Origin: Bacteroidota bacterium
GTDB taxonomy: Bacteria > Bacteroidota > Bacteroidia > AKYH767-A > 2013-40CM-41-45
Reading direction: 5' to 3'
DNA length: 64,000 nt
Assembly (NCBI GenBank): GCA_039806065.1
Contig: JBDKJS010000083.1
Location: 4,010 to 68,009, forward strand
Under the pieces are notes generated by a model that saw only the letters and a list, made by a program, of their open reading frames with translations, had not been told where the DNA came from and did no database searches. Positions 719 to 44,379 of this stretch are shown here, piece after piece. The position numbers and the translations under genes were made by a program. The number at the start of each line of letters is the position of its first letter. Within the stretch, counting starts at the first letter, position 1.

Positions 719-743
719 CACATAATCTACACAATTATAAAAA

Positions 744-775
744 CTGCTTCAATATGATTGAGGCAGTTTTTTTTT
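744..775 (+). terminator. Rho-independent terminator after the M13 peptidase gene
   Basis: Hairpin CTGCTTCAAT/ATTGAGGCAG (one G-U pair) followed by a T9 run, starting 26 nt after the stop codon. Confidence 0.65.
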
Positions 776-876
776 ACACCACTTGACCATGCCTAGCCAC
801 TCTTGAAAGTGAAAAAGTTATTGCGCTCTAATTTATTGTGGCATGCCAATCAAATTTATACCTTTCCATTTTTCAA

Positions 877-2391
877 ATGAACCCAAGCAGCACTGAAATA
901 TTATTCTTTAATCCCAGAGCCTTAGAGCACAAGCCTCGCATTCCAAATAGTTTGCTTCAAGTAGCGGCCAGTATTGACCAGGATCACCGGTGGCATTTGG
1001 TAGATGGGAATTTAGAAACAGAACCTTTGACAGCCATAGCGGTCCTTCTTGAAAAATATCCGATCAAAATATTTGCCTGTACAGTAATGCCAGGGCCACA
1101 GCTTAGGCAAGCCATTCCCATATCCAAATGGATGAGGGAACACTACCCTGCTGTGATTGTGGTATGGGGAGGTTATTTTCCCAGCAACCATGCACAAGTA
1201 GTATTGGGTAGTGGCTATGTAGATTTCATCATCAACGGCATGGGCGATAAGGCTTTTCCGCTATTGGTAAAAAAAATACTCGCCAACGAAACCGACTACA
1301 ATACGGTACCAAATTTAATATTTATACAATCACATAAATTAGTAAAGACTCCGAAAGATGAAATTTATAACTTAGATGAGTTGCCGGCATTACCCTATGA
1401 AAAACTAAACTCCATATATTCATTAGAAAAATACCTGGGTAAAACCTACTTAGGAAAAAAAACAATAGCCTACCACAGTAGTTTTGGATGTCCTTTTACA
1501 TGTTCATTTTGTGCAGTGGTGCCCATTTACAATGCAAGATGGAAGGGCAAAGCAGCCACTTTAGTATATGAGGATATAATGCGACTGAAAACGCAACATG
1601 GAGCCGATGCCATCGAATTTCATGACAATAATTTTTTTGTTAGTGAAAAGCGCACGCAAGAATTTTCAACATTAATAGCACCACATAACATGGTATGGTG
1701 GGGTGAAGGGCGGATAGATACAATTGATCGCTATAGCGATCACACCTTACAAACAATGCGCCAAAGTGGGTGTAAGATGATATTTTTTGGGGCTGAAACT
1801 GGCAACGATGCGGTATTAAAAAAAATGGATAAAGGCGGAACTCAAAGTGGTGCACAAATACTTCGTTTTGCAAAGCGAATGTTAGAATTTGATATCATTC
1901 CTGAATATTCCTTTGTATTAGGAACGCCAGCAGAAAGTGAAGCAGCCTCCTGGCGGCAGATAAAAGAAGACATTGCATTTATTAGAAAGGTTAAAGACAT
2001 CAACCCATCAGCAGAAATAATTATTTACATCTACAGTCCAGTGCCCACAGAAGGGAGCACACTATTTAGTCAAGTAAAAGCTACAGGCTTTAATTTTCCA
2101 CAAACGCTTGAAGATTGGTTGACCCCAGCATGGGAAAATTTTGACTTAAGAAAAAATCCACTCACACCATGGCTTACTTCGGAAATGATTCAGCATATAA
2201 AAGATTTTGAAACAGTATTGAATGCCCGATTCCCAACCATATCAGACATCAGACTTAACCAGATGCAGCGCAGCACCTTGCAAAGGTTGGGCTATTTAAG
2301 GTACCATACGAAGATTTACCGAGCACCATATGAATTGAAGTTATTACAAAAAATTTGGAAATATCGACAACCAGAAACCGAAGGCTTCTAA
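877..2391 (+). CDS. B12-binding domain radical SAM protein (class B radical SAM), paralog 1
   Basis: N-terminal cobalamin-binding-type Rossmann region (ILFFNP..., VDFIINGMGDKAF). Radical SAM core with CxxxCxxC = CPFTCSFC. ATG at 877 chosen; the ORF-track longest start at 838 is GTG. Confidence 0.8.
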   Translation: MNPSSTEILFFNPRALEHKPRIPNSLLQVAASIDQDHRWHLVDGNLETEPLTAIAVLLEKYPIKIFACTVMPGPQLRQAIPISKWMREHYPAVIVVWGGYFPSNHAQVVLGSGYVDFIINGMGDKAFPLLVKKILANETDYNTVPNLIFIQSHKLVKTPKDEIYNLDELPALPYEKLNSIYSLEKYLGKTYLGKKTIAYHSSFGCPFTCSFCAVVPIYNARWKGKAATLVYEDIMRLKTQHGADAIEFHDNNFFVSEKRTQEFSTLIAPHNMVWWGEGRIDTIDRYSDHTLQTMRQSGCKMIFFGAETGNDAVLKKMDKGGTQSGAQILRFAKRMLEFDIIPEYSFVLGTPAESEAASWRQIKEDIAFIRKVKDINPSAEIIIYIYSPVPTEGSTLFSQVKATGFNFPQTLEDWLTPAWENFDLRKNPLTPWLTSEMIQHIKDFETVLNARFPTISDIRLNQMQRSTLQRLGYLRYHTKIYRAPYELKLLQKIWKYRQPETEGF

Positions 2392-2393
2392 CT

Positions 2394-3056
2394 ATGAATA
2401 AGGTATTTAAAAAAATATTGAATAATACGTACAAGCCACTGCTGCAGCAATATTTAAAAAAAGACCGCAGCTATACCTGGAAAAATATTAACTTAAGCAT
2501 ACCAGCTGGCATTTTTCATCCCAAATTTTTTTTTAGTACTCAATTGCTTTTGCGATTCCTCTCAGCGGTTGATTTAAATAATAAAAAGATCATTGAAATC
2601 GGTTGCGGTTCGGGACTAATTAGTATTTACTGTGCGCAACAACAGGGCATGGTAACGAGTGTAGATATTAATACAGCAGCCGTAAAATGTACAGCCTTAA
2701 ATGCATCAATAAATAATGTAGCCATCAATGCTTTAGAAAGTAATTTATTTGCTAATATTCCAAATCAAGAATTTGATATCCTCATCATTAATCCACCCTA
2801 TTATGCAGGCGCCATTCACCAACCAGCAGACCATGCATGGTACGCTGGTCCCAATTATGAATACTTTTATCAATTATTTGAGCAACTTCCCAATTATATG
2901 AATAGCAGCAGCCGGGTTTTCATCATCCTATCGGAAGAGGGACCCACGGACTTAATCAAAAAGCTGTGCTTACCTCATTTTACTATTTATAAAATTCATA
3001 CTTTTAACAAGTGGCTCGAAAAAAATCATATTTTTGAAATCACCCTTTCTCTATGA
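2394..3056 (+). CDS. MTS-type class I SAM-dependent methyltransferase with NPPY motif (amino-group N-methyltransferase signature)
   Basis: Motif I EIGCGSGLIS and motif IV ILIINPPYY, as in RsmC/RlmG/PrmC-type enzymes. ATG lies 2 nt after the upstream stop. Confidence 0.75.
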   Translation: MNKVFKKILNNTYKPLLQQYLKKDRSYTWKNINLSIPAGIFHPKFFFSTQLLLRFLSAVDLNNKKIIEIGCGSGLISIYCAQQQGMVTSVDINTAAVKCTALNASINNVAINALESNLFANIPNQEFDILIINPPYYAGAIHQPADHAWYAGPNYEYFYQLFEQLPNYMNSSSRVFIILSEEGPTDLIKKLCLPHFTIYKIHTFNKWLEKNHIFEITLSL

Positions 3057-4018
3057 ATAGTTTTGTTCCATCACTTGCGCCCGAAGAAATAATCCAACAG
3101 ACAGATGTGGGATTATCAATCCTTCATACCTTAGTTTACTTTGACTTATTCAAACATCCACTCACTGCTAATGAGATTGTAAAATACCAATTCAAAAGCA
3201 GTGCGACCGCATTACAAATAAGCGAAACATTGGATGAGTTGCTTCGATTGCGAATGATTAAAAACAGCAATGGTTATTTTTCACTTTATACTAGTGGTGA
3301 ATATTTAGAGCGAAGGCTTAATGGAGAAAGACAAAGTCGCAAGGCGATGGCCATTGCCAGACATAAAAGTAAAATTATAGCCTTATTTCCCTTTGTTCGA
3401 GGAGTTGCCATTTCAGGATCATTATCAAAAGGATATACTGATAAAGATGGCGATATTGATTACTTTATTATTACCTCCCCAAATAGGTTGTGGACATGCA
3501 AACTAATTTTAATGTTATATAAAAAAATATTTTTACTCAATAGCAGAAAACATTTTTGTTTAAACTACTTTATATCAAACGACCAACTTACCATTCCAGA
3601 TAAAAATATTTTTACCGCAATAGAAATTGCATTTTTGAAATGCACTTACAATCAATCACAAATAGATCAATTTAATAGAGCCAATAGCTGGATAGCTACA
3701 TTTTTACCCATTCACAGTTTTATATCAGGCGTTGGAACAAATCCTTATAGAGAAAGTAAAATAGAGTGGCTTTTCAAAGGCTGGGTAGGAAATATATTTG
3801 AAAAATTTTCTTATAAGATTTTAAAATTTCATAAAAGTGTAAAATTTAAACATTACCATCCTGCGCAAGTCAATATCAATTTACGGTCTACAAGTACTGC
3901 ATCAAAACACCATCCATTAGGTTACCAACAGCGGGTATTAAGTGCCTTTGCCGAAAGATGTGAAAAAATTAATTCCGAATATTTAGCATCCATGCATCGT
4001 GATATTACTCACTCATAG
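3053..4018 (+). CDS. Pol-beta-superfamily nucleotidyltransferase domain protein with N-terminal helical/winged-helix-like region
   Basis: ISGSLSKGYTDKDGDIDYFII matches the hG[GS]-x9-13-DhD nucleotidyltransferase signature. Start ATG overlaps the upstream stop (ATGA), indicating translational coupling. Confidence 0.7.
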   Translation: MNSFVPSLAPEEIIQQTDVGLSILHTLVYFDLFKHPLTANEIVKYQFKSSATALQISETLDELLRLRMIKNSNGYFSLYTSGEYLERRLNGERQSRKAMAIARHKSKIIALFPFVRGVAISGSLSKGYTDKDGDIDYFIITSPNRLWTCKLILMLYKKIFLLNSRKHFCLNYFISNDQLTIPDKNIFTAIEIAFLKCTYNQSQIDQFNRANSWIATFLPIHSFISGVGTNPYRESKIEWLFKGWVGNIFEKFSYKILKFHKSVKFKHYHPAQVNINLRSTSTASKHHPLGYQQRVLSAFAERCEKINSEYLASMHRDITHS

Positions 4019-5429
4019 TTACCATTTACATTTCGATCAAAAACAATTATTACTTGGCAAACCCTATCCCCCATTGGGGATGCTATATGCATCGGCAGTA
4101 CTTCAACAAGCAGGCATGGAAGTAGCCTGTCACGATCCAATGTTTAGTAAAACCTTGGCACCTTTTACCACAGCATTGCACCAGCATCAACCAAATTATA
4201 TGATCGTATATGATGATGGCTTTAATTATTTAAATAAAATGTGCCTAAGTAATATGCGCGATGCAAGTATTAGGATGGCAAAGGAAGCAAAGTTATTATA
4301 CAAGTGTATAACTATAATAGTGAGCAGCGATAGCAGTGATAGACCTCTTGATTACCTTCAAAACGGATTTGACTATGTAATAGCTGGTGAAGGAGAAATG
4401 GCCCTATTACAGCTAATCAATACTATAAATGGGGGAGGCAACGGGGCTGCGAGTCCAAGTGTGATCACCATGCTAAATGAAACCTTGGTTCAAAATACCA
4501 AATTGAAGGTGATGGATCAACTTGATATATTACCGCACCCGGCATGGGAACAAATAGATTTAGTGCCCTATAAAAAAACATGGCTGAAAAAGCATGGTTA
4601 TTTTTCACTTAACCTAAGTACTACCAGAGGTTGCCCTTTTAAATGCAATTGGTGTTCAAAACCTATTTATGGTAACAGGTACCATGCTCACAGTGTAGGC
4701 TATGTAATAGAAGAGATTCGCAAACTACAATCATTGGGAGCCACTCATCTTTGGATCACGGATGATATTTTTGGTTTAAAACCGGGTTGGGTAAAATTGT
4801 TTGCAGATACAATCAAGGCTGAGGGAATAAAGATTAGCTATAAAATTCAATCGCGTGTGGATTTATTACTTGAAGAAACACAGATAAAACACTTATCCAC
4901 CAGCGGTTGTGATGAGGTATGGGTAGGGGCCGAAAGTGGTTCGCAGCGAATACTTGATGCCATGGATAAAGGCACCAAGGTGGAACAAATAATGGAAGCC
5001 TGTTCATTGATGAAGTTGCATGGTATAAGACCGTGTTTATTCCTACAATTTGGCTACTTGGGCGAGCAAGCTGAAGATATAAAACAAACTATTGAAATGG
5101 TAAATTACATTAAACCATATGATATAGGTGTTTCGGTTTCTTATCCCTTGCCCGGAACTGAATTTTATGAATCAGTAAAATCGCAGCTGGTATCAAAAAC
5201 ACATTGGGTAGATAGTGATGAATTGGTAACACTTTACCAAGCCACCTACCCTACCGACTGTTATAAAAAACTACAACGCTATGTTCATGGAAAATTTAGA
5301 TGGGCACAATTTAAATCTAATCTCAGACAAGGGCGCTTGAATCATTGGCGGTACCTATTTACAGCCCCTTACCATGGGCTCCACAGTTTTTTGCTTAAGC
5401 ATCAATTGAAAACATATTTTAGGTTATAG
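3999..5429 (+). CDS. B12-binding domain radical SAM protein (class B radical SAM), paralog 2
   Basis: N-terminus ILLTHSY...PPLGMLYASAVLQQAGMEV is a canonical B12-domain start. CPFKCNWC is the CxxxCxxC cluster. GTG start overlaps the nucleotidyltransferase gene by about 20 nt. Confidence 0.75.
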   Translation: MILLTHSYHLHFDQKQLLLGKPYPPLGMLYASAVLQQAGMEVACHDPMFSKTLAPFTTALHQHQPNYMIVYDDGFNYLNKMCLSNMRDASIRMAKEAKLLYKCITIIVSSDSSDRPLDYLQNGFDYVIAGEGEMALLQLINTINGGGNGAASPSVITMLNETLVQNTKLKVMDQLDILPHPAWEQIDLVPYKKTWLKKHGYFSLNLSTTRGCPFKCNWCSKPIYGNRYHAHSVGYVIEEIRKLQSLGATHLWITDDIFGLKPGWVKLFADTIKAEGIKISYKIQSRVDLLLEETQIKHLSTSGCDEVWVGAESGSQRILDAMDKGTKVEQIMEACSLMKLHGIRPCLFLQFGYLGEQAEDIKQTIEMVNYIKPYDIGVSVSYPLPGTEFYESVKSQLVSKTHWVDSDELVTLYQATYPTDCYKKLQRYVHGKFRWAQFKSNLRQGRLNHWRYLFTAPYHGLHSFLLKHQLKTYFRL

Positions 5430-5515
5430 CACAACCCTTACAAAAAAGAAACCCCGCCCGGGGGAGAGCGAGGTTTACACACACTAAGCTATGAAAATAA
5501 AAAACGGTAGTTCGA

Positions 5516-7036
5516 TTAATCGGGGTTGTCGTGCAAAAAGCTATTATTGGTTCGCAGCTGCAATCCGTGATCTTGGTCACTATTGAGTGAGGTTCTTGAT
5601 AGGTGTTGTTGGCTACTATGTTGTGCTTCATCCAGTTTCATTTTCTGGCGTTCGAAAGCTGGAATATTTTCGAGTTCGGCCAACTTCTCTGGATTATTAT
5701 AGCTCATGGCTTTTAATCTTTTCAAGCGTTCTTGTGATCGTTCGAAAGCTGCTTGTTCCATAGCTGAATCATCATTCGCCATTTTTTTTTCAGCAAATGG
5801 ATTTACTGTTCTCCCTATCTGAGGCTTAACATTATCTGGCAATGGAGGATTTGGATTAATTTCAAATTCTACTGTATGATCGTTAGTATTGGTAGTCCCC
5901 AGGTCAAAATATTTAATTTCAGAATCGGCTGTATTGCCAGTAGTATTGACTTTGATTTGAGGATCTAAAGAATGTGCTTGAGCATTATATGGAGCTATTT
6001 CAGGGTTGGTTTTTGGCAGGGGTGTATTGTTTAAATCATGCTTGATAGGTACATTTTGAAGTTCTTTATCTAATTCCAATTTGGTTTTAAATCCTGTGGC
6101 AATAAGCGTTACACCTACCTTGCTGCCCATATTGGCATCATAACAATTTCCCCAAATAATTTCGGCACTCATACCGGCTGCCTCTTGAACATGATCTGTT
6201 ATTTGACCAATCTCATCCATGGTTATTTCTTCATCGCCATAACTGATATTTAAAAGTATATAGCGAGCACCCTTTATTTCATTATCATTGAGTAAAGGAG
6301 AGGCCAAAGCATTGGAGATGGCATCCATAGCTCTGTTAGATCCTTGCCCGAAACCAGTTCCCATAATAGCAGCACCTGAATCTTGAACAGCGGTTCTTAC
6401 ATCTTCAAAATCTACATTGATATAACCGGTAACAGTAATTATTTCTGCGATTCCTTTGGCTGCAGTGGTCAATACTTCATCAGCATGAGCGAATGCAGTA
6501 CTTATTTTTTGGTTTCCAAAGAGTTCTCTTAGTTTTTCATTTTTAATGATAATGATGGCATCTACATTTTTTTTAAGAGCCTCAATACCACTGTTTGCTG
6601 CTTCAAAACGTTTCTTGCCTTCAAATGGAAAAGGAGTAGTAACAATACCAACAGTGAGAATTCCTAATTCGCGTGCCTGTTGCGCTATGATGGGAGCTGC
6701 GCCAGTACCTGTGCCACCGCCCATACCAGCGGTAATAAAAACCATTTTGGTATTTTTATTCAGTACATCTCTAATTTCATCTAGACTTTCAACGGCAGCA
6801 TTACACCCCACTTCAGGTTTTGATCCAGCGCCATAGCCAGCGGTGAGTGTAGTGCCCAACTGAATTCTGGTAGGAATTGGACTCACCTCCAATGCTTGAG
6901 CATCGGTATTACACACTATAAATTCCACTCCCTTAATTCCCTGTCGGAACATGTGGTTAACGGCATTGCTTCCACCGCCACCAACGCCTATGACCTTGAT
7001 GATTGAAGAATCTGCACTGGGTATATCAAATTGCAT
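5516..7036 (-). CDS. ftsZ: Cell division protein FtsZ
   Basis: GVGGGGSNAV and GGGTGTGAAP tubulin-signature motifs. C-terminal NIPAFERQK peptide. Terminal gene of the dcw cluster. Confidence 0.95.
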   Translation of the reverse strand: MQFDIPSADSSIIKVIGVGGGGSNAVNHMFRQGIKGVEFIVCNTDAQALEVSPIPTRIQLGTTLTAGYGAGSKPEVGCNAAVESLDEIRDVLNKNTKMVFITAGMGGGTGTGAAPIIAQQARELGILTVGIVTTPFPFEGKKRFEAANSGIEALKKNVDAIIIIKNEKLRELFGNQKISTAFAHADEVLTTAAKGIAEIITVTGYINVDFEDVRTAVQDSGAAIMGTGFGQGSNRAMDAISNALASPLLNDNEIKGARYILLNISYGDEEITMDEIGQITDHVQEAAGMSAEIIWGNCYDANMGSKVGVTLIATGFKTKLELDKELQNVPIKHDLNNTPLPKTNPEIAPYNAQAHSLDPQIKVNTTGNTADSEIKYFDLGTTNTNDHTVEFEINPNPPLPDNVKPQIGRTVNPFAEKKMANDDSAMEQAAFERSQERLKRLKAMSYNNPEKLAELENIPAFERQKMKLDEAQHSSQQHLSRTSLNSDQDHGLQLRTNNSFLHDNPD

Positions 7037-14189: not shown

Positions 14190-15461
14190 CTATCTAAGTT
14201 TAAGTGTTATGATTGTTAGAATGGCTAGCATGATACCGATGATCCAAAATCGCGTTACAATTTTAGCTTCGGCATAACCTTCCTTTTGGTAGTGATGGTG
14301 CAATGGCGCCATTTTAAAAAGTCTATTGGCACGAGCATATTCAATGCCATGCTTTCTCTTTTGGTATTTAAAATACCAAACTTGTAAAATGACTGATAAA
14401 TTTTCTACTAGGAAGATGCCACATAATATGGGTATGAGCAATTCTTTTCTAATGCAAATAGCAAATACTGCAATAATTCCACCAATGGCTAATGAACCGG
14501 TATCGCCCATAAAAACCTGAGCTGGGTAACTGTTATACCATAGAAATCCTACACAAGCACCAACAAATGCTCCCATAAAAATAACCAATTCGCCACTATT
14601 GGGGATATACATTATATTTAAATAATTAGCAAATACTGTATTGCCGCTTACATATGCCAAGATCCCCAAGGTAGTTCCTATTATGGCTGAAGTGCCAGTG
14701 GCCAATCCATCAATGCCATCAGTGATGTTTGCTCCATTAGAAACAGCCGTTACAATAAAAATCACTATCGGAATAAAGATCAGCCAGGCATATTTATCAC
14801 TGTCTAAACCCATCCACGACACAATCGTTCCGTAGTCAAATTCATGATTTTTTACAAAAGGGATTGTAGTTTTTAAAGATTTTATGGATTCCTTTTTGAA
14901 TAGGAGTTCTTCGTTATTTCGGGCATCGTCAATCAATGATTTGGCGGTATGATTCAAGTTTACTTGTTCTGCCACTGCTTTTTCTTTGACTACTACATAT
15001 TGATTGAAGTAAAGTGTGAGGGCAATTACCAGTCCTAGTCCTACTTGTCCAATAACTTTAAATTTACCTGCTAGCCCAGCTTTATCTTTTCTAAAAACCT
15101 TAATATAATCATCTAAGAAACCAATGAACCCCAGCCACACCGTAGTAACTACCATGATAATTATATACACATTCAATACTCGAGCAAAGAGTAAAGTAGG
15201 AATAAGAATGGCGGTGAGCATGATAAGACCACCCATGGTAGGGGTACCTTGTTTTTTCTTTTCCCCTTCTAGACCAAGGTCTCGCACCAACTCTCCCACT
15301 TGCTTTTTATGTAAGTAGTTTATAATCTTTTTTCCAAGTACTAACGAAATAAGTAATGAAAGAATGATAGCGCAGGCAGCTCTAAAACTGATGTATTGAA
15401 ATACACCCGCTCCAACGAAATTAAATTCATGATCAAGATATCTGAATAGGTAGTAAAACAT
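14190..15461 (-). CDS. mraY: Phospho-N-acetylmuramoyl-pentapeptide transferase
   Basis: Polytopic membrane protein with NxxNxxDGIDGL motif ([15 protein letters not shown]). Position in the dcw cluster. Confidence 0.9.
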
Positions 15462-16924
15462 CAGGCTTTTATTTGATTAAGCATTTGGATTAGTATTTCT
15501 TTATCATTGAAGGGGTATTTTACACCATTTATTTCTTGATATTTTTCATGTCCTTTTCCTGCAATTAGAATGATGTCACCAGCATTGGCTAACATGCAAG
15601 CTGTTTTAATAGCTTCTTTTCTATCAACAATACTGAGTACTTTTTTCATTTTGCTTGGAGAGACTCCCAATTCCATTTGTTTTATTATTTCGAGTGGATC
15701 TTCATTGCGCGGATTATCAGCAGTAAAAATCACTTTAGAACTCTTCTCACATGCTATTGCTGCCATTAAGGGTCTTTTGGATGTATCTCTATTTCCACCA
15801 CACCCCACTACTGTAATTACATTTGTCTTCCCATTATTTATATCGTTGATGGTGTTTAGTACATTCTCCAATGCGTCAGGCGTGTGTGCATAATCAACAA
15901 TCCCCACTATATTGGTTTCTGATTTTACATAATCAAATCTACCCTCTACACTGGTGAGCGTACTTAGAATGGTAAGTGTGTCTAATTCATTTTGTCCGAG
16001 CAATACAGCTGTAGCATACACAGCCAACAAATTATAGGCATTAAAGGACCCCACTAACCGAAAGTGAACATCGTGCGATGCAATGTTTAACTGCAACCCA
16101 GAAAATTGATTTTCTATTATCCTTACTTTAAAATCGGCAAGAGACCTAAGGGCATATATTTTTTTTGTAGCCTTAGTGTTTTGCAGCATATAAGTTCCAT
16201 TCTTATCATCAGCATTGGTAAGTGCAAATGCATCGGCTGGCAAAATATCAAAAAAACCTTTTTTAGCATCTCTATAGGCTTCAAATGTTTTATGATAATC
16301 TAAATGATCGTGTGTAAGATTGGTAAACACACCGCCAGCAAATTTAATACCGGCTATTCTCTTTTGCACAACTGCGTGTGAGCTTACCTCCATAAAGCAA
16401 TAAGTACAGCCTGCACTTACCATGTTATCTAGCAATCGATTTAACTGAACTGGGTCAGGGGTAGTGTGGGTACTTGGTACCACGGCATCATCAACATGAT
16501 TTTGAACGGTACTAATCAATCCGGTTTTATGGCCAGCAGCTTTAAAAAATTTATATAGCATGGTGGCCGTAGTAGTTTTTCCATTGGTACCAGTAATTCC
16601 GATAAGTTTTATTTTTTCAGAAGGATTATCAAAATAGTTGGCAGCAATAATGGCAAGCGCAACTGCAGAATCTTTCACCTTAATATAAGTAATACCTTCA
16701 TGAATGATTGCTGGAAAATCTTGAACTACAACTGCCACCACACCCGAATCGAGCACTTGGTTGATGTACAAATGGCCATCAGCATTGCCGCCTTTAAGCG
16801 CAATAAAAAGTGATCCTTCAACTACCGCACGTGAGTCGAAACAAATTTCACTTATATTCAAATCTGTGTTCCCTTTAATTTCAATAAGGCTCACTTTATA
16901 AAGGATGTCGCGGAGTAGTTTCAT
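15461..16924 (-). CDS. murE: UDP-N-acetylmuramoyl-L-alanyl-D-glutamate--2,6-diaminopimelate ligase
   Basis: Mur ligase with [12 protein letters not shown] motif ([11 protein letters not shown]) is diagnostic of meso-DAP-adding MurE. 1-nt overlaps with both neighbours. Confidence 0.85.
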
Positions 16925-23506: not shown

Positions 23507-24382
23507 TCAAACTCCTTGGATGAACCTACCAAATACGCCCAATGGCAATTGCAATCCTGATTGTGCTTGTAAATAAAGTTCACCTGTTTCTAACTTCTTT
23601 TGATTGCCAAATAAATTTTTAATGATAAGAGCACTAAAGCCAAGTGAATAAGTATTAAGTAGTAAAAAAGATGATGGTTCTAATAGTTGTATCACGGTTT
23701 CAACCATTTCATTGATCATATCTTCTAATTTCCATTTTTCACCTTTGGTACCATGCCCATAGGCCGGAGGATCAAGGATAATACCGTGGTATTTATTACC
23801 TCTTTTGGCTTCACGTTTTGCAAATACCAAAGCATCTTCAACTACCCATCTGATATCACTTAGGTGACTCAGCTGTCTGTTGTCGTTGGCCCATGAAACT
23901 ACTTGTTTAACGCTATCAAGGTGTGTCACATCTGCACCGGCAGCTTTAGCAGCCAAAGATGATCCACCGGTATAGGCAAATAAATTAAGCACTTTAGGAT
24001 GATTAACTTTTTTTTTCAATTGGAGAACGCTATTGGCAATATATTCCCAATTAACTGCTTGCTCAGGAAAAATACCTACATGTTTAAACGCGGTGAGTGC
24101 CAACCGTAAAGAAATTTTTTGATCAATTGCCTTTATGGTATAATCGATTTGCCATCGATCGGACACAGGCTTTATTTTTTGCCATTCGCCACTTGCGCTT
24201 GTCTTTGCTTTAAAAAATAAATGAGCTTTACTATTCCATTGCGAATCAGACCAAGCAGGTTTCCAAACTGCCTGTGGTTCTGGTCTAATAGTAATAATGG
24301 AGCCAAACTTTTCTAATTTATAAAAATTTCCACAATCGAGTAGTTCATACTGTTCGAAGTGAGTAGGATTGAGTAGTAGCAT
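23507..24382 (-). CDS. Class I SAM-dependent methyltransferase (RlmI/YccW-like rRNA methyltransferase C-terminal domain type)
   Basis: LNLFAYTGGSSLAAKAAGA motif I. DPPAYG motif IV. Confidence 0.65.
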   Translation of the reverse strand: MLLLNPTHFEQYELLDCGNFYKLEKFGSIITIRPEPQAVWKPAWSDSQWNSKAHLFFKAKTSASGEWQKIKPVSDRWQIDYTIKAIDQKISLRLALTAFKHVGIFPEQAVNWEYIANSVLQLKKKVNHPKVLNLFAYTGGSSLAAKAAGADVTHLDSVKQVVSWANDNRQLSHLSDIRWVVEDALVFAKREAKRGNKYHGIILDPPAYGHGTKGEKWKLEDMINEMVETVIQLLEPSSFLLLNTYSLGFSALIIKNLFGNQKKLETGELYLQAQSGLQLPLGVFGRFIQGV

Positions 24383-24488
24383 AGATCAAAAATATTCAAC
24401 GGCAAGATTGAAAAAAATTTTCAACAAAAACTTTTTTTCAATAATCATTTTAATACATTTATCGCATCAATTAATTTATTCAATCATC

Positions 24489-25208
24489 ATGTCAGAAATA
24501 GAAGCCTTATCAATTAAAAACGAGAAAATACAACATTTAAATAAAGAGCTTAGTAAAGAAAACGAAGAGTTGTTCCATCAGTACAATCATTTGATGATAA
24601 GAAATAATAAGTTTTTAAAACGAATAGAAGATCAACAGAAGTTAATTGAATCACTCTACGAGCGCATTTCAGAATTACAGCATATCAACAGTAAGCTTTT
24701 AAAACTTAACGATGGTTATCGAAATCATTTTTCTACCGCTATTGACAAGCGCAAGGCTAATGTGATTCCAAGCAACGATGCCATAGCCACGCTAGATCCT
24801 GATGATATCGAAGCACTATATGAAAGATGGAAGTTATTTCCAGGTCAGTTAGCTAGCAATGGTCCCAATTTAAGAAAGCAAATGGTGATGCTATTACACT
24901 TGAGCAACAACCCCATGATGAATGCGGCCGATTTATTTCAAATAACAGGTGTAGGAGGTGTAACCGGTGCACGGTATGTATCAGTTCTAAAAAAAGCTGG
25001 ATTGATTAAATATAGTGGAGCCCGCAAAAAGGGATATTATGAAATTACAGAAGAAGGCATAGCCTTTGTAGAAGGCAAGCTCAAGCTTCATTCACACGCC
25101 TCATTATCTGATGGCATGCCGGGTTTACAGCCAAAGGGAATTAAAATTGACGAGGTCATTCATGTGGCCAGCCATTCACACTTGGCTATTGATTCAATGG
25201 ATCTTTAG
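24489..25208 (+). CDS. Hypothetical protein: N-terminal coiled coil, C-terminal winged-helix-like segment
   Basis: Heptad-rich N-terminus (LSKENEELFHQYNHLMIRNNKFLKRIEDQQKLIESLYERISELQ). C-terminus ITGVGGVTGARYVSVLKKAGLIKYSG resembles a wHTH recognition region. First ATG chosen. Confidence 0.4.
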   Translation: MSEIEALSIKNEKIQHLNKELSKENEELFHQYNHLMIRNNKFLKRIEDQQKLIESLYERISELQHINSKLLKLNDGYRNHFSTAIDKRKANVIPSNDAIATLDPDDIEALYERWKLFPGQLASNGPNLRKQMVMLLHLSNNPMMNAADLFQITGVGGVTGARYVSVLKKAGLIKYSGARKKGYYEITEEGIAFVEGKLKLHSHASLSDGMPGLQPKGIKIDEVIHVASHSHLAIDSMDL

Positions 25209-39349: not shown

Positions 39350-40798
39350 ATGCTATTCAGCTCATTAGTATTTCTATTTTTGTTTCTACCACTAACGCTG
39401 GCAGGCTACTATATAGTAAGCAAGCAAATAAAAAACTATTGGTTGCTACTAGCAAGTTTGGTATTTTTTGCTTGGGGTGGAATCAGCTTTACATTGATAC
39501 TGATAGGCTCTATTATTTTTAATTATACCATTGGTTTATTGATTCAAAAAAAGATTGAAAGTAGGGCTGGGTGTAATTGGTTGGTATTGGGTGTGGGCAT
39601 AAATTTATTGTGTTTGGCCATTTTTAAGTATTCCGATTTTTTAATTAGTAACTTGAATAAAGTAAATTCCTTTTTCTCACTTCCTCAGGCCAAACAGGCA
39701 AACATTGCGCTGCCAATTGGTATTTCGTTTTACACTTTCCATGCACTGTCTTACTTGGTAGATATTTACCGTAAGAAATCACTTGCGCAGCGTAATATTT
39801 TTGATTTAGCGCTATATATCAGCATGTTTTCTCAGTTAATAGCAGGCCCCATAGTTCGGTATAGCGATGTGTGGAACCAGCTCAGGGAAAGAATACACTC
39901 ATTAGCTAAATTTTCATCTGGAGTAGAGCGGTTTATAATTGGTTTAGGGAAAAAGGTACTCTTGGCAAATACATTTGGGCGAACTGCCGACTTGTTTTTC
40001 AGTAGCGATCTCTCAAATTTGGGTTATGTAAATGCATGGTTAGGAATTATATGTTACACCCTTCAAATTTATTACGACTTTGCTGGCTATTCTGATATGG
40101 CTATAGGATTAGGAAGAATGTTTGGATTTGAATTTTTAGAAAATTTTAATTTTCCATACGTGGCAAAATCGATTAAAGAGTTTTGGAGAAGGTGGCATAT
40201 TTCCTTGTCAACTTTTTTTAGAGATTATGTTTACATTCCTTTGGGTGGCAACCAAACTTCGACAAAAAAAACTTATTTGAATTTAATAATTGTTTTTTTT
40301 CTTACTGGTTTTTGGCACGGGGCTAGTTGGAATTTTATTCTTTGGGGAATGTTTCACGGTTTTTTTATGTTAATTGAAAAGATGGGATTAGAAAGGTTGC
40401 TACAAAAGACTTGGAGGCCAATTTCGATCTTTTATACTTGGTTGGTGGTGATGTTTGGTTGGGTGCTCTTTAGGGTTGACTATACCAAGCAAGCATGGCA
40501 ATATTGGAAAGAAATGTTTGATTTTAACTTTACCGATGAACAATACCTATTATTAATCAACCAACTGAACATTGAATTTTTTCTCGTCTTCAGTATAGGG
40601 TTATTGGGTTCATTGGGATTTTTTAAATATGTAGCTTCAGAAGTTCCAAAGTGGATAAAAATAGAATCGAAAAGTGGCAGGTGTTTGGTCTATACTTACC
40701 ACCTTACAGCGGTAATTATGTATGCTACCATTTTTATTTTATGTACGCTTTATTTAGTTGCGGGAACTTACAATCCATTTATTTACTATCGTTTTTGA
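39350..40798 (+). CDS. MBOAT family membrane-bound O-acyltransferase (AlgI/DltB/PatA-like)
   Basis: Polytopic membrane protein. Conserved catalytic His in FWRRWHISLSTFFRDYVY. Confidence 0.85.
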   Translation: MLFSSLVFLFLFLPLTLAGYYIVSKQIKNYWLLLASLVFFAWGGISFTLILIGSIIFNYTIGLLIQKKIESRAGCNWLVLGVGINLLCLAIFKYSDFLISNLNKVNSFFSLPQAKQANIALPIGISFYTFHALSYLVDIYRKKSLAQRNIFDLALYISMFSQLIAGPIVRYSDVWNQLRERIHSLAKFSSGVERFIIGLGKKVLLANTFGRTADLFFSSDLSNLGYVNAWLGIICYTLQIYYDFAGYSDMAIGLGRMFGFEFLENFNFPYVAKSIKEFWRRWHISLSTFFRDYVYIPLGGNQTSTKKTYLNLIIVFFLTGFWHGASWNFILWGMFHGFFMLIEKMGLERLLQKTWRPISIFYTWLVVMFGWVLFRVDYTKQAWQYWKEMFDFNFTDEQYLLLINQLNIEFFLVFSIGLLGSLGFFKYVASEVPKWIKIESKSGRCLVYTYHLTAVIMYATIFILCTLYLVAGTYNPFIYYRF

Positions 40799-40801
40799 TC
40801 C

Positions 40802-41977
40802 ATGAATTATAATTTTTTTAGGGCTATTCTAATGGTGAGTATATTTTTATTACTCATTTTATTTCCTTTGCTCAATGACACTTTTCACTTAATTAAAGAT
40901 TTTGAAAATACTGAGAATCGTAAGGTTGCTTCACTTCCGGCATTCAATATTGAATTATTAGATCCTTATCCAATTGAATTTAACAATTTCTATACTGATA
41001 ATTTCACTATAAGACATAGGCTGATTAAATATTACAATCATTTAAATTTAAAATACTATAAAAAATCGCCACTGCCCAATCAAGTATTAATTGGGAAAAA
41101 TAGTTGGTTGTATTTGGTAGGGAATGAAGTTAATTGCTTTAGAGGCAAACAGCCCTTTACTGAGGCGGAGTTAAAAACGCTTAAATCAGAGTTTGAATAT
41201 CGCCAGCAATATTTAGCCACTTTAAACTGTAAATTTTATTTATTAATTGCTCCTGTAAAGGCCAGTATTTATCCTGAAAATTTACCATTAGGTATGATTC
41301 GTTTAATGGGGCTATCATGGGGAGAGCAATTGAATAACTACTTAAGTAAAAATAGCACGGTAAAAACAATTGATTTATTTACTGCGCTTAGATCTAATAA
41401 ATCTGATGGGTTAAATTATTACATGTTAGATAACCATTGGAATCAAAAGGGGGGAATGATAGCTGCCCAAGAGGCGCTTCGCATGGTAAAGAAAGATTTG
41501 TTACCATTGGATACTATCAACCTAGCCGATTATGAATTAAAGGATTCCATGGTGAATAGTGGCAACTTGGCCATGATGCTTTCAAACACAAAGATATTTA
41601 ATGATAGCGTGTTTTATTACCATCCCGTTCATGGTTATCAATCGGTAGAAAAAGAAAAAGTGGGTTATCCTCCTGTGGATCAATTTGCCTATGCATCAGA
41701 ATATGAATATGTGCGTGAAACAAAGGGGGATAAAAAATTAAAGCTCTTAATGATTTCAGATTCTTTTGGTGCCAATATTTTCACCTTCCTTTCTGAGAGT
41801 TTTGGGCGGAGTGTAAAAATTTTTGATGCCTGGCAGTACAAGTTGAATGAAAACATTGTGGCAGCAGAAAAACCTGATGTAGTCATGGTGGTTGCTTTAG
41901 AATCGAACATAAAGAACTTGCTTCGTTATTTATCCAATAAAAATGTTGGTGATAGCATACAAGTGAATGCAAACTAA
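40802..41977 (+). CDS. DHHW-motif (AlgJ/AlgX-like, SGNH-fold) O-acyltransferase partner protein
   Basis: N-terminal TM anchor. LDNHWNQKG matches the D-x-H-W motif of AlgJ-family proteins. 3-nt gap to the MBOAT gene. Confidence 0.7.
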   Translation: MNYNFFRAILMVSIFLLLILFPLLNDTFHLIKDFENTENRKVASLPAFNIELLDPYPIEFNNFYTDNFTIRHRLIKYYNHLNLKYYKKSPLPNQVLIGKNSWLYLVGNEVNCFRGKQPFTEAELKTLKSEFEYRQQYLATLNCKFYLLIAPVKASIYPENLPLGMIRLMGLSWGEQLNNYLSKNSTVKTIDLFTALRSNKSDGLNYYMLDNHWNQKGGMIAAQEALRMVKKDLLPLDTINLADYELKDSMVNSGNLAMMLSNTKIFNDSVFYYHPVHGYQSVEKEKVGYPPVDQFAYASEYEYVRETKGDKKLKLLMISDSFGANIFTFLSESFGRSVKIFDAWQYKLNENIVAAEKPDVVMVVALESNIKNLLRYLSNKNVGDSIQVNAN

Positions 41978-43467: not shown

Positions 43468-44379
43468 TTAAAATGCAAAGCCAGCATTAATTCCGGCCAC
43501 TGTACTTCGTGTGAGGCCATCAGGCCTTGCTTGCCTTACAGTCAATGGCGCAGCGATGAAGGCTTGAAGCCGGATTTTGTTTGAGGGCTGAAAGCCCAAT
43601 TGGATATTGGCATTGAGGGTGAGGCCTTTGCTACCATTTATTGTTTCTCGGTTTTTATCTAAGTTAAGATAAGTGTCATTGGCAATGTGGTAAATGGGCA
43701 ACAGTGAAGGTGTGATGCTCCATTTTGTAGTTAGTGATTGGCGCCATGCCATTCGGAGAAGTAAGTCTGCTGCTCGGTTAAATTGATTGGTACTGTTAAA
43801 CGCCACTATTTGGTTAAATTGAATTTGATTGATGGCAAGGTAGGAGTTTTTATTTTGTGTGAGTGGCTGCTGAAAGCCTAATGTTAATTCCAAATTACGA
43901 TAATTGTATATATAGCTTAATAATAAATCAAATGTTCCTAATGAAGACTGGTAATCCATTGGTAAGGGGGCATTCTGCCTGGTTCTATTTGCATTGTTAG
44001 CGGGGACTTTAATCCCTAAAATAAATTGATGCCGCTGGGAGGTGCGGTATTGGTAATTAAAAATAAGATCTGATAGGCCTGAAAGGGAAATATTGTTCCC
44101 GGTTTGATTAATGGCGCTAACCTTAGTAGCTATGGTATGGTATTGATTAATTTTATAGGCGTATTCCAGATGAATGGTTGTGGCAGTAATATTATTATCA
44201 GCCTGGCCAATAACAGCGCCTATACTAAGCAGGTGGGCATGCTGCACAGTGTCTTCATGATGTGATTGGGTGCCGGGCATGGTACAAAGGCCAGCATCGC
44301 TGCAGCCTTGTGCCTTTGCAGTATGGAATGCGAGCAGGCTAAGGCAAGTAAAACATGTGATTAGGGTAAGTAATTTCAT
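43468..44379 (-). CDS. Putative outer-membrane beta-barrel protein with Cys/His-rich N-terminal segment
   Basis: Signal peptide. Mature N-terminus QGCSDAGLCTMPGTQSHHEDTVQHAH. Alternating amphipathic strands. C-terminal aromatic residue (..GFAF). Confidence 0.5.
   Translation of the reverse strand: MKLLTLITCFTCLSLLAFHTAKAQGCSDAGLCTMPGTQSHHEDTVQHAHLLSIGAVIGQADNNITATTIHLEYAYKINQYHTIATKVSAINQTGNNISLSGLSDLIFNYQYRTSQRHQFILGIKVPANNANRTRQNAPLPMDYQSSLGTFDLLLSYIYNYRNLELTLGFQQPLTQNKNSYLAINQIQFNQIVAFNSTNQFNRAADLLLRMAWRQSLTTKWSITPSLLPIYHIANDTYLNLDKNRETINGSKGLTLNANIQLGFQPSNKIRLQAFIAAPLTVRQARPDGLTRSTVAGINAGFAF

Follow-up and report, generated by a model that had tools for sequence, protein, structure and literature searches.

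Among the closest known systems, the aminoglycoside tailoring set comprises the class B radical SAM C-methylases GenK and GenD1, the N-methyltransferase GenN, the dehydratase AprD4, which acts on an aminoglycoside sugar, the GT4 glycosyltransferases GenM1 and GenM2, and nucleotidyltransferases of the ANT type. In fosfomycin biosynthesis, the cytidylyltransferase Fom1 is paired with the class B radical SAM methylase Fom3. Head groups of hopanoids (HpnI/HpnK/HpnJ) and of archaeal lipids (calditol synthase) are remodelled once glycosyl transfer is complete: a B12-type radical SAM enzyme works on the sugar that a glycosyltransferase, in some cases together with a deacetylase, has supplied. In proteusin clusters, the paired class B radical SAM enzymes PoyB and PoyC occur with the amide-type N-methyltransferase PoyE. 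Glutamine residues are modified by the class B radical SAM enzyme MgmA/QCMT (2-methyl-Gln in MCR) and HemK2/MTQ2 (N5-methyl-Gln).

The locus described here lies in a 64-kb window, meaning the whole stretch of DNA analyzed, and has an M13 peptidase gene on one side and the dcw cluster on the other. Four co-directional open reading frames, overlapping or abutting, were confirmed at positions 877 to 5429. The features of the cassette and its boundaries are as follows.

739 to 779, plus strand: hairpin terminator with a 15-bp stem and a 3-nt loop, then U9, from the fold of the sequence
877 to 2391, plus strand: rSAM-A, 504 aa, class B-type radical SAM protein with an N-terminal B12-binding-type domain
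2394 to 3056, plus strand: NPPY methyltransferase, 220 aa, class I MTS-type
3053 to 4018, plus strand: nucleotidyltransferase (NTase), 321 aa, winged helix plus Pol-beta nucleotidyltransferase
3999 to 5429, plus strand: rSAM-B, 476 aa, class B radical SAM protein
5449 to 5476, minus strand: GC-rich hairpin and T-run, terminator of the convergent ftsZ
5516 to 7036, minus strand: ftsZ, convergent on the cassette

The translational coupling of the four genes, claimed in an earlier sequence-only reading from a 2-nt gap, an ATGA overlap and a 20-nt overlap, was upheld at every junction. The rSAM-A stop codon TAA (2389-2391) is followed by CT and the methyltransferase ATG at 2394, the NTase start overlaps the methyltransferase stop within ATGA at 3053-3056, and the rSAM-B GTG at 3999 precedes the NTase stop at 4016-4018. 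Orthologue alignments, which begin at nt 880 and nt 4002, back the starts at 877 and 3999. The proposed bounds, a 5' terminator and the convergent ftsZ 3' end, were confirmed by the hairpin fold and the ftsZ terminator. The upstream hairpin, at about 739-771 (-16.7 kcal/mol, z = -7.6), was equalled in stability by 0 of 200 shuffles and was absent from the list of a consensus terminator scanner. It ends the M13 peptidase gene (stop at 718) and forms the 5' boundary of the cassette; the minus-strand terminator is the 3' boundary.

Both radical SAM proteins scored over the threshold of Pfam Radical_SAM, rSAM-A with 33.6 bits and the motif CPFTCSFC at aa 205 (nt 1489-1512), and rSAM-B with 71.2 bits and CPFKCNWC at aa 212 (nt 4632-4655). 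For B12-binding they stayed at about 25 bits (24.8 for rSAM-A), below the gathering score of 32.1. No NCBIfam model reached its cut-off with the cassette proteins, and rSAM-A aligned over nearly its full length with the BchE, HpnJ and PhpK-like models at scores far under the cut-offs. The best PDB sequence match of rSAM-A was the B12 domain of TokK; those of rSAM-B were MgmA/QCMT (9ccb, 67 bits) and AprD4 (55 bits). The entry 9ccb is an MCR glutamine C-methyltransferase (PMC12931638, PMC11796369). The AF2 model of rSAM-B (pLDDT 82.4) matched TsrM, MgmA, OxsB, AprD4, TokK and CysS with E values from 1e-19 to 1e-13, and on this model rSAM-B probably has a cobalamin-type class B radical SAM fold with predicted B12 binding.

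The methyltransferase, with NPPY at aa 133 (nt 2790-2801), scored 67.8 bits against Pfam MTS and was closest to the HemK2/MTQ2/N6AMT1 family, reaching 84 bits with the NCBIfam HemK2/MTQ2 model (cut-off 87). MJ0882, N6AMT1 and RsmC were its best PDB sequence matches. Across 38 orthologues NPP was kept at 90% or more, followed by an AWyG motif. Against a sugar substrate, the best homologues of the individual proteins point elsewhere, HemK2/MTQ2 being a protein-glutamine N-methylase and MgmA a protein-glutamine C-methylase.

The NTase consists of a winged helix (aa ~18-80), a long helix, a Pol-beta-type core with GS-x10-DID at aa 122 (nt 3416-3460), and a C-terminal helical domain with an invariant KHHP..Q motif. 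The GS/DxD/E catalytic set is intact. The window protein scored 17.9 bits against Pfam NTP_transf_2, below the threshold of 21; the nucleotidyltransferase call survived, as 18 of the 18 family members tested matched this profile. The earlier domain assignments thus hold, clearly for Radical_SAM and MTS, whereas B12-binding and NTP_transf_2 are sub-threshold in the window proteins and were rescued by the family or the model. The fold is nearest to the sugar-hydroxyl nucleotidyltransferases ANT(4'), AadA and LinB, and the protein AMPylators MNT and DrrA were among the weak Foldseek matches. The N-terminal domain has the topology of a canonical winged helix, unlike the RRE/PqqD arrangement, which begins with the beta-sheet. 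This Pol-beta/ANT-type protein is not Fom1-like; Fom1 has a different fold, that of a Fom1/IspD-type cytidylyltransferase.

Dozens of other genomes share this gene order (rSAM-A, methyltransferase, NTase, rSAM-B) with proteins 40-66% identical, which is more than expected by chance. The NTase family forms about 1,680 clusters at 50% identity (E < 1e-30) and is present in more than 541 species genomes, mostly of Bacteroidota and Ignavibacteriota. NTase followed by rSAM-B, of the orthologue group rSAM484, is the near-invariant core (82 of 84 loci), and rSAM-A, of the group rSAM503 with orthologues 58-66% identical, followed by a methyltransferase is a second module. In most genomes the cluster also includes genes for a GT4 glycosyltransferase, a UbiE-like methyltransferase and one more class B radical SAM protein. 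The four genes were earlier taken for a closed unit; they are instead a smaller form of a modular cluster that can number up to 8-10 genes. Its description as an undescribed tailoring module stands, for it is widespread but uncharacterized, matching no curated family, and no paper describing it was found in literature searches.

Genes for glycan assembly accompany the cluster in other genomes. Of 88 loci, 26 carry an orthologous GT4 within the operon, for instance with rSAM461 on one side and rSAM-A on the other. In the complete genomes of Runella sp. and Mucilaginibacter sp. McL0603, orthologues of rSAM-A (58% identity), rSAM-B (53%) and NTase (33-35%) sit inside Wzx/Wzy polysaccharide loci with Polysacc_synt, Wzy_C, GT2, several GT4, a DUF1972 glycosyltransferase, Polysacc_deac_1 and an acetyltransferase. 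There the NTase closes the Wzx...Wzy_C operon as its last gene, and rSAM-A adjoins a non-NPPY methyltransferase instead of the NPPY one. Such clear embedding is seen in a minority of loci, which are phylogenetically non-independent, and literature searches returned no biochemically studied case of a class B radical SAM enzyme from a Wzx/Wzy locus. NTase genes are also fused to Bac_transf (phosphoglycosyl transferase, PGT) and to GT4, both in glycan loci, the GT4::NTase fusion standing directly 5' of an rSAM-B orthologue (50% identity). The 123 genes directly flanking the core block included Wzy_C (7), Bac_transf (4), GT87 (4), GT2 (3) and PMT_2 (3). In a control set of 76 genes, all 5 kb or more distant, Wzy_C, Bac_transf, GT87 and PMT_2 each appeared no more than once; the contrast is of modest size, and sugar epimerases and glycosyltransferases abound in the control set too. 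Against a glycan role, the cassette stands by itself in the 64-kb window, which has no GT4, PGT or Wzx; its sole Wzy_C protein is 21 kb from the cassette and 21-24% identical to cluster-associated Wzy_C.

With moderate confidence, we read the cassette as a pared-down copy of a modular cluster, conserved in Bacteroidota and Ignavibacteriota, for cytoplasmic sugar tailoring of an envelope glycoconjugate; polysaccharides, lipid-linked oligosaccharides and glycolipid head groups are the candidates. The kinship of the NTase fold with sugar-hydroxyl nucleotidyltransferases and the place of AprD4 among the best rSAM-B matches also speak for this reading. The earlier statement that the substrate cannot be inferred was too pessimistic, as the Wzx/Wzy loci, the GT4 and PGT fusions and the Wzy_C, Bac_transf and GT-C neighbours point to a glycoconjugate.

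Post-translational modification of a protein or peptide, with the target or RiPP precursor encoded elsewhere, is unlikely. The NPPY methyltransferase would N-methylate Gln/Asn amides, the class B radical SAM enzymes would C-methylate side chains as do MgmA, Mmp10 and PoyB/C, the NTase would AMPylate or tag the target, and GT4 would O-glycosylate it. The paired radical SAM enzymes and amide-type methyltransferase resemble PoyB/PoyC plus PoyE, and MgmA and HemK2/MTQ2 are the nearest characterized relatives of rSAM-B and the methyltransferase, the latter having the NPPY and AWxG motifs and falling just under the cut-off. One cluster GT4 scored best against the protein O-glycosyltransferases SdgA/SdgB, and the AMPylator matches of the NTase also agree with a protein target. 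The proteusin analogy, proposed earlier, was not upheld, since none of 82 non-redundant loci has a conserved small ORF or a gene of precursor size beside the cluster; epimerase, dehydratase and protease are likewise lacking, RiPP radical SAM models score far under cut-off, as do all these family homologies, and the winged helix is no RRE/PqqD domain. The host, unlike that of MgmA, is not a methanogen and is without MCR, and the genomic context of the family is glycan-related, unlike that of the glutamine-modifying enzymes. The Bac_transf fusion and Wzx/Wzy context fit poorly unless the target is a glycoprotein glycan, in which case this explanation merges with the glycoconjugate one. Rather improbable is also the tailoring of membrane lipids, in which the radical SAM enzymes would methylate or cyclize chains or polycyclic isoprenoids (HpnP/HpnR, GrsA/B) or remodel a glycolipid head group (HpnJ, calditol synthase), with the methyltransferases and NTase modifying the head group. 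The better NCBIfam alignments include those to HpnJ (92-143 bits, cut-off 577), HpnR and the 'lipid biosynthesis B12-binding/radical SAM' family, but these scores are 4-7 fold under the cut-offs and lack specificity, because BchE, PhpK and RiPP-type models score equally well. Neighbours are occasionally YceI-like, MMPL/sterol-sensing, GDSL or PMT_2 (ArnT-like), and some loci hold a GT4 and Polysacc_deac_1 pair resembling the HpnI/HpnK/HpnJ logic. Against this, the neighbourhoods showed no squalene, hopene or isoprenoid synthase genes and, unlike the lipid systems, no hopanoid or archaeal-lipid genes, none of the core proteins has predicted membrane segments, the NTase fusion partners are PGT and GT4 and not lipid enzymes, and the cluster has 2-4 paralogous radical SAM proteins with methyltransferases and NTase where hopanoid or calditol remodelling uses one enzyme.

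Quite improbable is a soluble secondary-metabolite or cofactor pathway in which a nucleotidylated small molecule is C-methylated, giving an aminoglycoside-like or phosphonate-like product or a cobamide lower ligand (BzaC/D/E logic). The cassette shares with aminoglycoside tailoring the B12-type radical SAM proteins, class I N-methyltransferases, GT4 and the KNTase/ANT-like fold; the nearest solved relatives include GenN, AprD4 and ANT-type proteins, at only 12-19% identity, and PhpK, the Sden_1168 P-methyltransferase model and BzaD align over most of the length. No locus examined showed 2-deoxy-scyllo-inosose synthase, an aminotransferase, ThiC-like BzaA/B or CobT, nor 2-deoxystreptamine or aminocyclitol core genes; the family context is instead Wzx/Wzy/PGT envelope-glycan assembly, and the NTase, unlike ANT resistance enzymes, is a conserved biosynthetic partner with an extra winged helix. 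From the Fom1/Fom3 analogy made earlier, the pairing logic stands, in that an NTase accompanies a class B radical SAM protein that could act on a nucleotidylated intermediate; the NTase fold differs, PhpK-type models score far under cut-off, and no PEP mutase or phosphonate genes were found in the loci examined. The spread over so many species with variable flanks suits an envelope trait better than a specialized antibiotic. Modification of nucleic acids is very improbable: the winged helix would bind RNA or DNA, the NTase add nucleotides, the methyltransferase make m6A or m2G, and bases be C-methylated by the radical SAM enzymes, but the context is glycan-related and not RNA, DNA or defence-related, PADLOC gave nothing for the three proteins other than the NTase, and nucleic acids are not known as substrates of class B radical SAM enzymes.

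For sugar tailoring of an envelope glycoconjugate, the substrate, reaction order and chemistry that we infer are as follows. The winged-helix NTase would transfer a nucleotide from an NTP to a sugar intermediate, at a hydroxyl or phosphate, leaving a nucleotide handle or activated group on the sugar, as suggested by its intact catalytic set and ANT-like fold. Its coupled partner rSAM-B, given the class B fold, would then carry out cobalamin-type radical chemistry at an unactivated carbon, most likely C-methylation and alternatively dehydration or rearrangement. A second radical reaction may follow by rSAM-A, and the coupled NPPY methyltransferase would methylate a planar amide or amine nitrogen. 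Glycosyl transfer, flipping, polymerization or ligation would fall to the GT4, PGT and Wzy_C-type proteins, whose genes other genomes carry within the cluster and this genome carries elsewhere.

The cassette consists of four plus-strand genes, in which two genes for class B-type radical SAM enzymes, here called rSAM-A and rSAM-B, enclose those of an NPPY methyltransferase and of a nucleotidyltransferase (NTase). The genes and their boundaries, in coordinates counted within the window, were located as follows.

approximately 739-779, plus strand, upstream 15-bp hairpin followed by U9 (folding, -16.7 kcal/mol, z = -7.6)
877-2391, plus strand, rSAM-A, 504 aa
2394-3056, plus strand, methyltransferase, 220 aa
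3053-4018, plus strand, NTase, 321 aa
3999-5429, plus strand, rSAM-B, 476 aa, GTG start
5476-5449, minus strand, ftsZ terminator, on the downstream side of the cassette
5516-7036, minus strand, ftsZ, convergent with the cassette, with the dcw cluster beyond

The junctions by which the four genes had been proposed to be coupled (a 2-nt gap, an ATGA overlap, and a 20-nt overlap) were all read in the sequence, as were the motifs NPPY and GS-x10-DID and the CxxxCxxC motifs of radical SAM membership, CPFTCSFC in rSAM-A and CPFKCNWC in rSAM-B. The start codons chosen are supported by orthologue alignments, whose first aligned positions are nt 880 and nt 4002. The 5' terminator claimed by the sequence-only reading was backed by folding and was absent from the output of a simple consensus terminator scan; the hairpin is preceded by an A-run and followed by a U-run and could, judged by this arrangement, be a terminator for both transcription directions. 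The convergence onto ftsZ, which has a terminator of its own, was likewise confirmed. The GC content was 36 to 37% in the middle of the cassette (2001-3500) and 29.6% in the 3' half of the NTase gene (3501-4000), compared with about 38 to 43% in the flanks. This low GC may reflect horizontal acquisition, which is common among glycan loci.

The radical SAM domain expected in both enzymes exceeded the Pfam threshold (PF04055, 33.6 bits for rSAM-A and 71.2 bits for rSAM-B; threshold, 29.5), and the CxxxCxxC cysteines were invariant across 26 rSAM-B homologues. The claim of N-terminal B12-type domains held, although by other evidence than the Pfam scores of the cassette itself. The Pfam B12-binding model reached about 25 bits in the window's own proteins, under the gathering score (for rSAM-A, PF02310 at 24.8 bits against 32.1); precomputed PF02310 matches were found on orthologues, and the domains were supported by the structural model of rSAM-B and by sequence matches of rSAM-A. 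The AF2 model of rSAM-B (pLDDT 82.4) matched TsrM, MgmA, OxsB, TokK, CysS, and AprD4 with E values of 1e-19 to 1e-13, and the alignments with the first five spanned about 400 to 550 columns. AprD4, which has the class B fold without cobalamin, scored about equal to the true cobalamin enzymes. On the basis of this model, rSAM-B is predicted to have a class B-type fold with an N-terminal B12-type domain before the radical SAM core, and its use of cobalamin is putative. From its sequence, rSAM-A is likewise a probable class B-type radical SAM protein with putative cobalamin use, and the nearest solved protein was the TokK B12 domain (35 bits). For rSAM-B, the nearest solved proteins by sequence were AprD4 and MgmA/QCMT, the latter represented by structure 9ccb (PMC12931638, PMC11796369).

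The assignment of the third gene product as a Pol-beta nucleotidyltransferase was upheld. The window NTase scored 17.9 bits with NTP_transf_2, under the gathering score; all 18 family members tested matched PF01909, and the protein has the hG[GS]-x9-13-Dx[DE] pattern on the NTase beta-sheet and the third carboxylate that characterise Pol-beta-type enzymes (PF01909 / PF18765). In the family alignment, G122, S123, D134, D136, D183, and E191, among them the catalytic residues, were invariant, as was a C-terminal KHHP..Q motif. In the AlphaFold model (pLDDT 82.5), a winged helix of canonical form (aa ~18-80) precedes a long helix, after which come the NTase core and a C-terminal domain made of helices. 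The methyltransferase was of the MTS type as claimed (Pfam MTS, 67.8 bits), and the NPP residues of its NPPY motif were kept in 38 orthologues. It resembles MJ0882, N6AMT1/HemK2, RsmC, PrmA, and GenN, and its gene is flanked by radical SAM genes, not translation genes. Its score of 84.0 bits with the HemK2/MTQ2 model (TIGR00537; cut-off, 87) was the closest approach of the cassette to any NCBIfam model, and PRK14968.1-3 gave 102.8 bits (cut-off, 162).

A "Bacteroidota bacterium" MAG at NCBI contains the same NTase sequence, annotated as a hypothetical protein (RIQ89_846). A word index yielded 1,528 NTase homologues, 1.84 billion representative proteins searched with a profile gave about 1,680 NTase clusters at E < 1e-30, and a scan of one genome per species confirmed more than 541 loci. 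The matches listed belonged mainly to Flavobacteriales, including Kordia periserrulae DSM 25731, K. jejudonensis, Aquimarina, Dokdonia, and Winogradskyella, and to Chitinophagales and Ignavibacteriales/Kapaibacteria; Runella and Mucilaginibacter also hold rSAM-B orthologues. The cluster is conserved over Flavobacteriales, Chitinophagales, Cytophagales, Sphingobacteriales, and Ignavibacteriales. Five loci (L018, L033, L043, L073, and L076) came from MAGs labelled Bifidobacterium, Methylacidiphilales, Thermoanaerobaculia, Holophagae, or Chromatiales, and represent either mis-binned contigs or transfer of the cluster beyond Bacteroidota/Ignavibacteriota.

The organization of the cluster was compared in 86 loci. 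The NTase gene was followed by that of rSAM-B in 82 of 84 loci, and downstream of this pair lay a UbiE-like methyltransferase gene in about 65, in most cases followed by one more class B radical SAM gene, rSAM461. rSAM-A followed by the NPPY methyltransferase was found in about 42 loci; this module may lie immediately upstream, as it does in the window, or it may be inverted or sit at another place. An orthologous GT4 gene occurred in 23 to 26 loci, often within the operon. The window has the four core genes only; when its 64 kb were searched by tblastn for the other cluster proteins (GT4, the UbiE-like methyltransferase, and radical SAM proteins three and four), no additional copy turned up. 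The same minimal set was present in some Crocinitomicaceae loci (L035, L074, and L085), and other loci hold extra genes. It follows that the cassette is a reduced form of a modular cluster and not the closed unit for which it had been taken. In Runella and Mucilaginibacter, rSAM-A is followed by a non-NPPY class I methyltransferase of 245 to 264 aa (L087:8146-8940, L088:8153-8890), a family found in about 21 further loci. The type of methyltransferase was thus swapped while its pairing with the radical SAM enzyme was kept, and the proposed N-methylation step is not universal.

The orthologues found in Runella sp. and Mucilaginibacter sp. McL0603 (58% identity to the window protein for rSAM-A, 53% for rSAM-B, and 33 to 35% for the NTase) are embedded in Wzx/Wzy polysaccharide loci. 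These carry genes for Polysacc_synt, Wzy_C, GT2, several GT4 and a DUF1972 glycosyltransferase, along with Polysacc_deac_1, amidohydrolase, and acetyltransferase genes, and the Wzx...Wzy_C operon ends with the NTase gene. Features of Wzx/Wzy loci (flippase, Wzy_C, PGT, and glycosyltransferases) were found there and at two further loci, L089 and L090. Three fusions of the NTase were detected (coordinates given jointly, L089:5236-6837 and L090:10001-12046).

P0263, 533 aa, Bac_transf phosphoglycosyl transferase fused to NTase
P0289, 681 aa, GT4 fused to NTase
P0293, 509 aa, class I methyltransferase fused to NTase

The first two fusions sit in glycan loci with genes for Wzy_C, a DUF1972 glycosyltransferase, an epimerase, WbaP-like and RgpF proteins, and a carbamoyltransferase, and the GT4 fusion is directly followed by an rSAM-B orthologue (50% identity). 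Among 123 genes directly flanking the core block, the commonest non-radical-SAM types were Wzy_C (7), Bac_transf (4), GT87 (4), GT2 (3), and PMT_2 (3), compared with at most one each for Wzy_C, Bac_transf, GT87, and PMT_2 in a control set of 76 genes lying at a distance of 5 kb or more. This contrast is modest, and the loci are phylogenetically non-independent; sugar epimerases/dehydratases and glycosyltransferases are also abundant among the distal controls. Other recurrent neighbours were SGNH/GDSL proteins, a SPASM radical SAM enzyme, and further class I methyltransferases. Together, the Wzx/Wzy embedding, the fusions, the flank census, and the recurrent neighbours point to a glycoconjugate as the target. 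Beside the GT4 fusion and rSAM-B in L090, the region 14472-16235 contains a NodU/CmcH-type carbamoyltransferase gene, a B12-type radical SAM gene, and IS21/Mu-type transposase genes, which suggests additional sugar O-carbamoylation and a mobile locus.

We propose, with about even confidence, that the cluster is a glycoconjugate-tailoring module. No membrane segment was predicted in any core protein, so the chemistry should be cytoplasmic. The NTase would nucleotidylate a sugar intermediate, on which the coupled rSAM-B would then perform cobalamin-type radical chemistry, most likely C-methylation; rSAM-A would carry out a second radical step, the NPPY methyltransferase would add a methyl group to an amide or amine nitrogen, and the GT4, PGT, and Wzy_C proteins present in the cluster in other genomes would incorporate and export the product. 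A wider and more doubtful reading is that the cluster represents an unrecognised, widespread envelope-glycan chemistry of Bacteroidota/Ignavibacteriota, in which the winged-helix NTase would place a nucleotide handle on a lipid-linked or otherwise activated sugar and two to four cobalamin-type radical SAM paralogues would then generate C-methylated, branched, or rearranged sugars, to be N- or O-methylated and exported via the Wzx/Wzy_C machinery.

Several other functions were weighed against glycoconjugate tailoring. NCBIfam contained no model at or above its cut-off for any core or accessory protein, and the BchE, HpnJ, PhpK, MJ_1487, and ladderane-type models, with similar scores 3- to 7-fold under cut-off, were discarded as indicators of function. 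Modification of a lipid chain or of protein glutamine is possible, as HpnJ/HpnR and MgmA/HemK2 are among the nearest characterised relatives; these similarities are all remote and the model scores fail to discriminate between families. The analogy drawn earlier with Fom1/Fom3 had come with the remark that PEP mutase was lacking, and neither PEP mutase nor phosphonate genes were seen in any neighbourhood examined; a phosphonate pathway itself was rejected, since the PhpK subfamily model gave 81 to 94 bits against a cut-off of 600 and the NTase fold differs from Fom1. Membership of the NTase in the ANT class, which the sequence-only reading had left to a structural search, fared no better. Foldseek returned no PDB match under E = 1e-3, and resemblance to the resistance enzymes ANT/AadA/LinB was limited to a TM score of ~0.2 and 12 to 17% identity at E > 1e-3. 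The additional winged helix and the conserved operon partnership with a radical SAM enzyme also spoke against a resistance enzyme.

The comparison with polytheonamide-type proteusin tailoring had noted that a precursor gene was missing, and this was borne out: when 1,261 small intergenic ORFs were compared all against all, none was conserved in more than 3 of 82 loci, the few shared ones were cold-shock-like or lipoprotein genes, and no recurrent 90- to 160-aa family of precursor size was found. The RiPP reading was set aside on this ground and because the winged helix of the NTase is canonical and not an RRE, the arrangement of which differs from canonical winged-helix topology. An anti-phage defence system was dismissed after a PADLOC run in which rSAM-A and the NTase drew no match and the sole results were a generic one to a methyltransferase domain (mad2, 56.7 bits) and a weak one to a radical SAM model.

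The view of the cassette as an undescribed module agreed with the NCBIfam result and with full-text literature searches, in which no paper on the cluster was found. Each component is of a known kind and the conserved combination appears undescribed, the chief novelty apparently being the invariant pair of a winged-helix NTase and a class B radical SAM enzyme and its tie to envelope-glycan loci. To our knowledge, nearly all known class B radical SAM enzymes belong to antibiotic, cofactor, lipid, or RiPP pathways; if the wider reading is correct, these would be the first in primary cell-surface polysaccharide biosynthesis. Action on envelope glycans would mean new sugar chemistry in abundant environmental bacteria, would explain some of the numerous B12-dependent radical SAM genes of Bacteroidota that lack an assignment, and would link surface structure to the supply of vitamin B12 (cobalamin). 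With a substrate other than a glycan, the invariant NTase/radical SAM pair would still be a new enzyme partnership. The proposal is directly testable in the culturable carriers K. periserrulae DSM 25731, K. jejudonensis, and Mucilaginibacter sp. McL0603.

Outside the cassette, the following features of the window were recorded.

24369-25208, plus strand, ORF without Pfam match (E <= 1e-5), 279 aa
25212-26150, minus strand, ORF without Pfam match (E <= 1e-5), 312 aa
26170-28173, minus strand, Wzy_C (O-antigen ligase/polymerase) protein with C-terminal TPR repeats, 667 aa
36105-39104, plus strand, two-gene 2-oxoacid:ferredoxin oxidoreductase (POR/POR_N and TPP_enzyme_C)
39350-41977, plus strand, MBOAT O-acyltransferase gene, then AlgX-like SGNH gene
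43468-44379, minus strand, ORF without Pfam match (E <= 1e-5), 303 aa
44436-46781, minus strand, Lysyl_oxidase protein (PF01186, 91.9 bits) with type IX secretion C-terminal sorting domain, 781 aa
46991-49495, plus strand, ORF without Pfam match (E <= 1e-5), 834 aa

No GT4, PGT, or Wzx was found within the 64 kb, and the 667-aa protein is the sole Wzy_C in the window, distant from the cassette. The absent glycosyltransferase and PGT and the distant Wzy_C count against the glycan model for this window. The Wzy_C and TPR architecture flanks the cluster elsewhere (L051, L054, L058, L083, and L090); the window protein shares 21 to 24% identity with those proteins and was rejected as a partner, as no link can be claimed at this level. 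The MBOAT and AlgX-like SGNH genes form a pair typical of polysaccharide or peptidoglycan O-acetylation, and a secreted lysyl-oxidase-like enzyme is unusual for bacteria. The 2-oxoacid:ferredoxin oxidoreductase hints that the metabolism is anaerobic or microaerophilic, a setting that would be favourable for radical SAM enzymes, given their sensitivity to oxygen.
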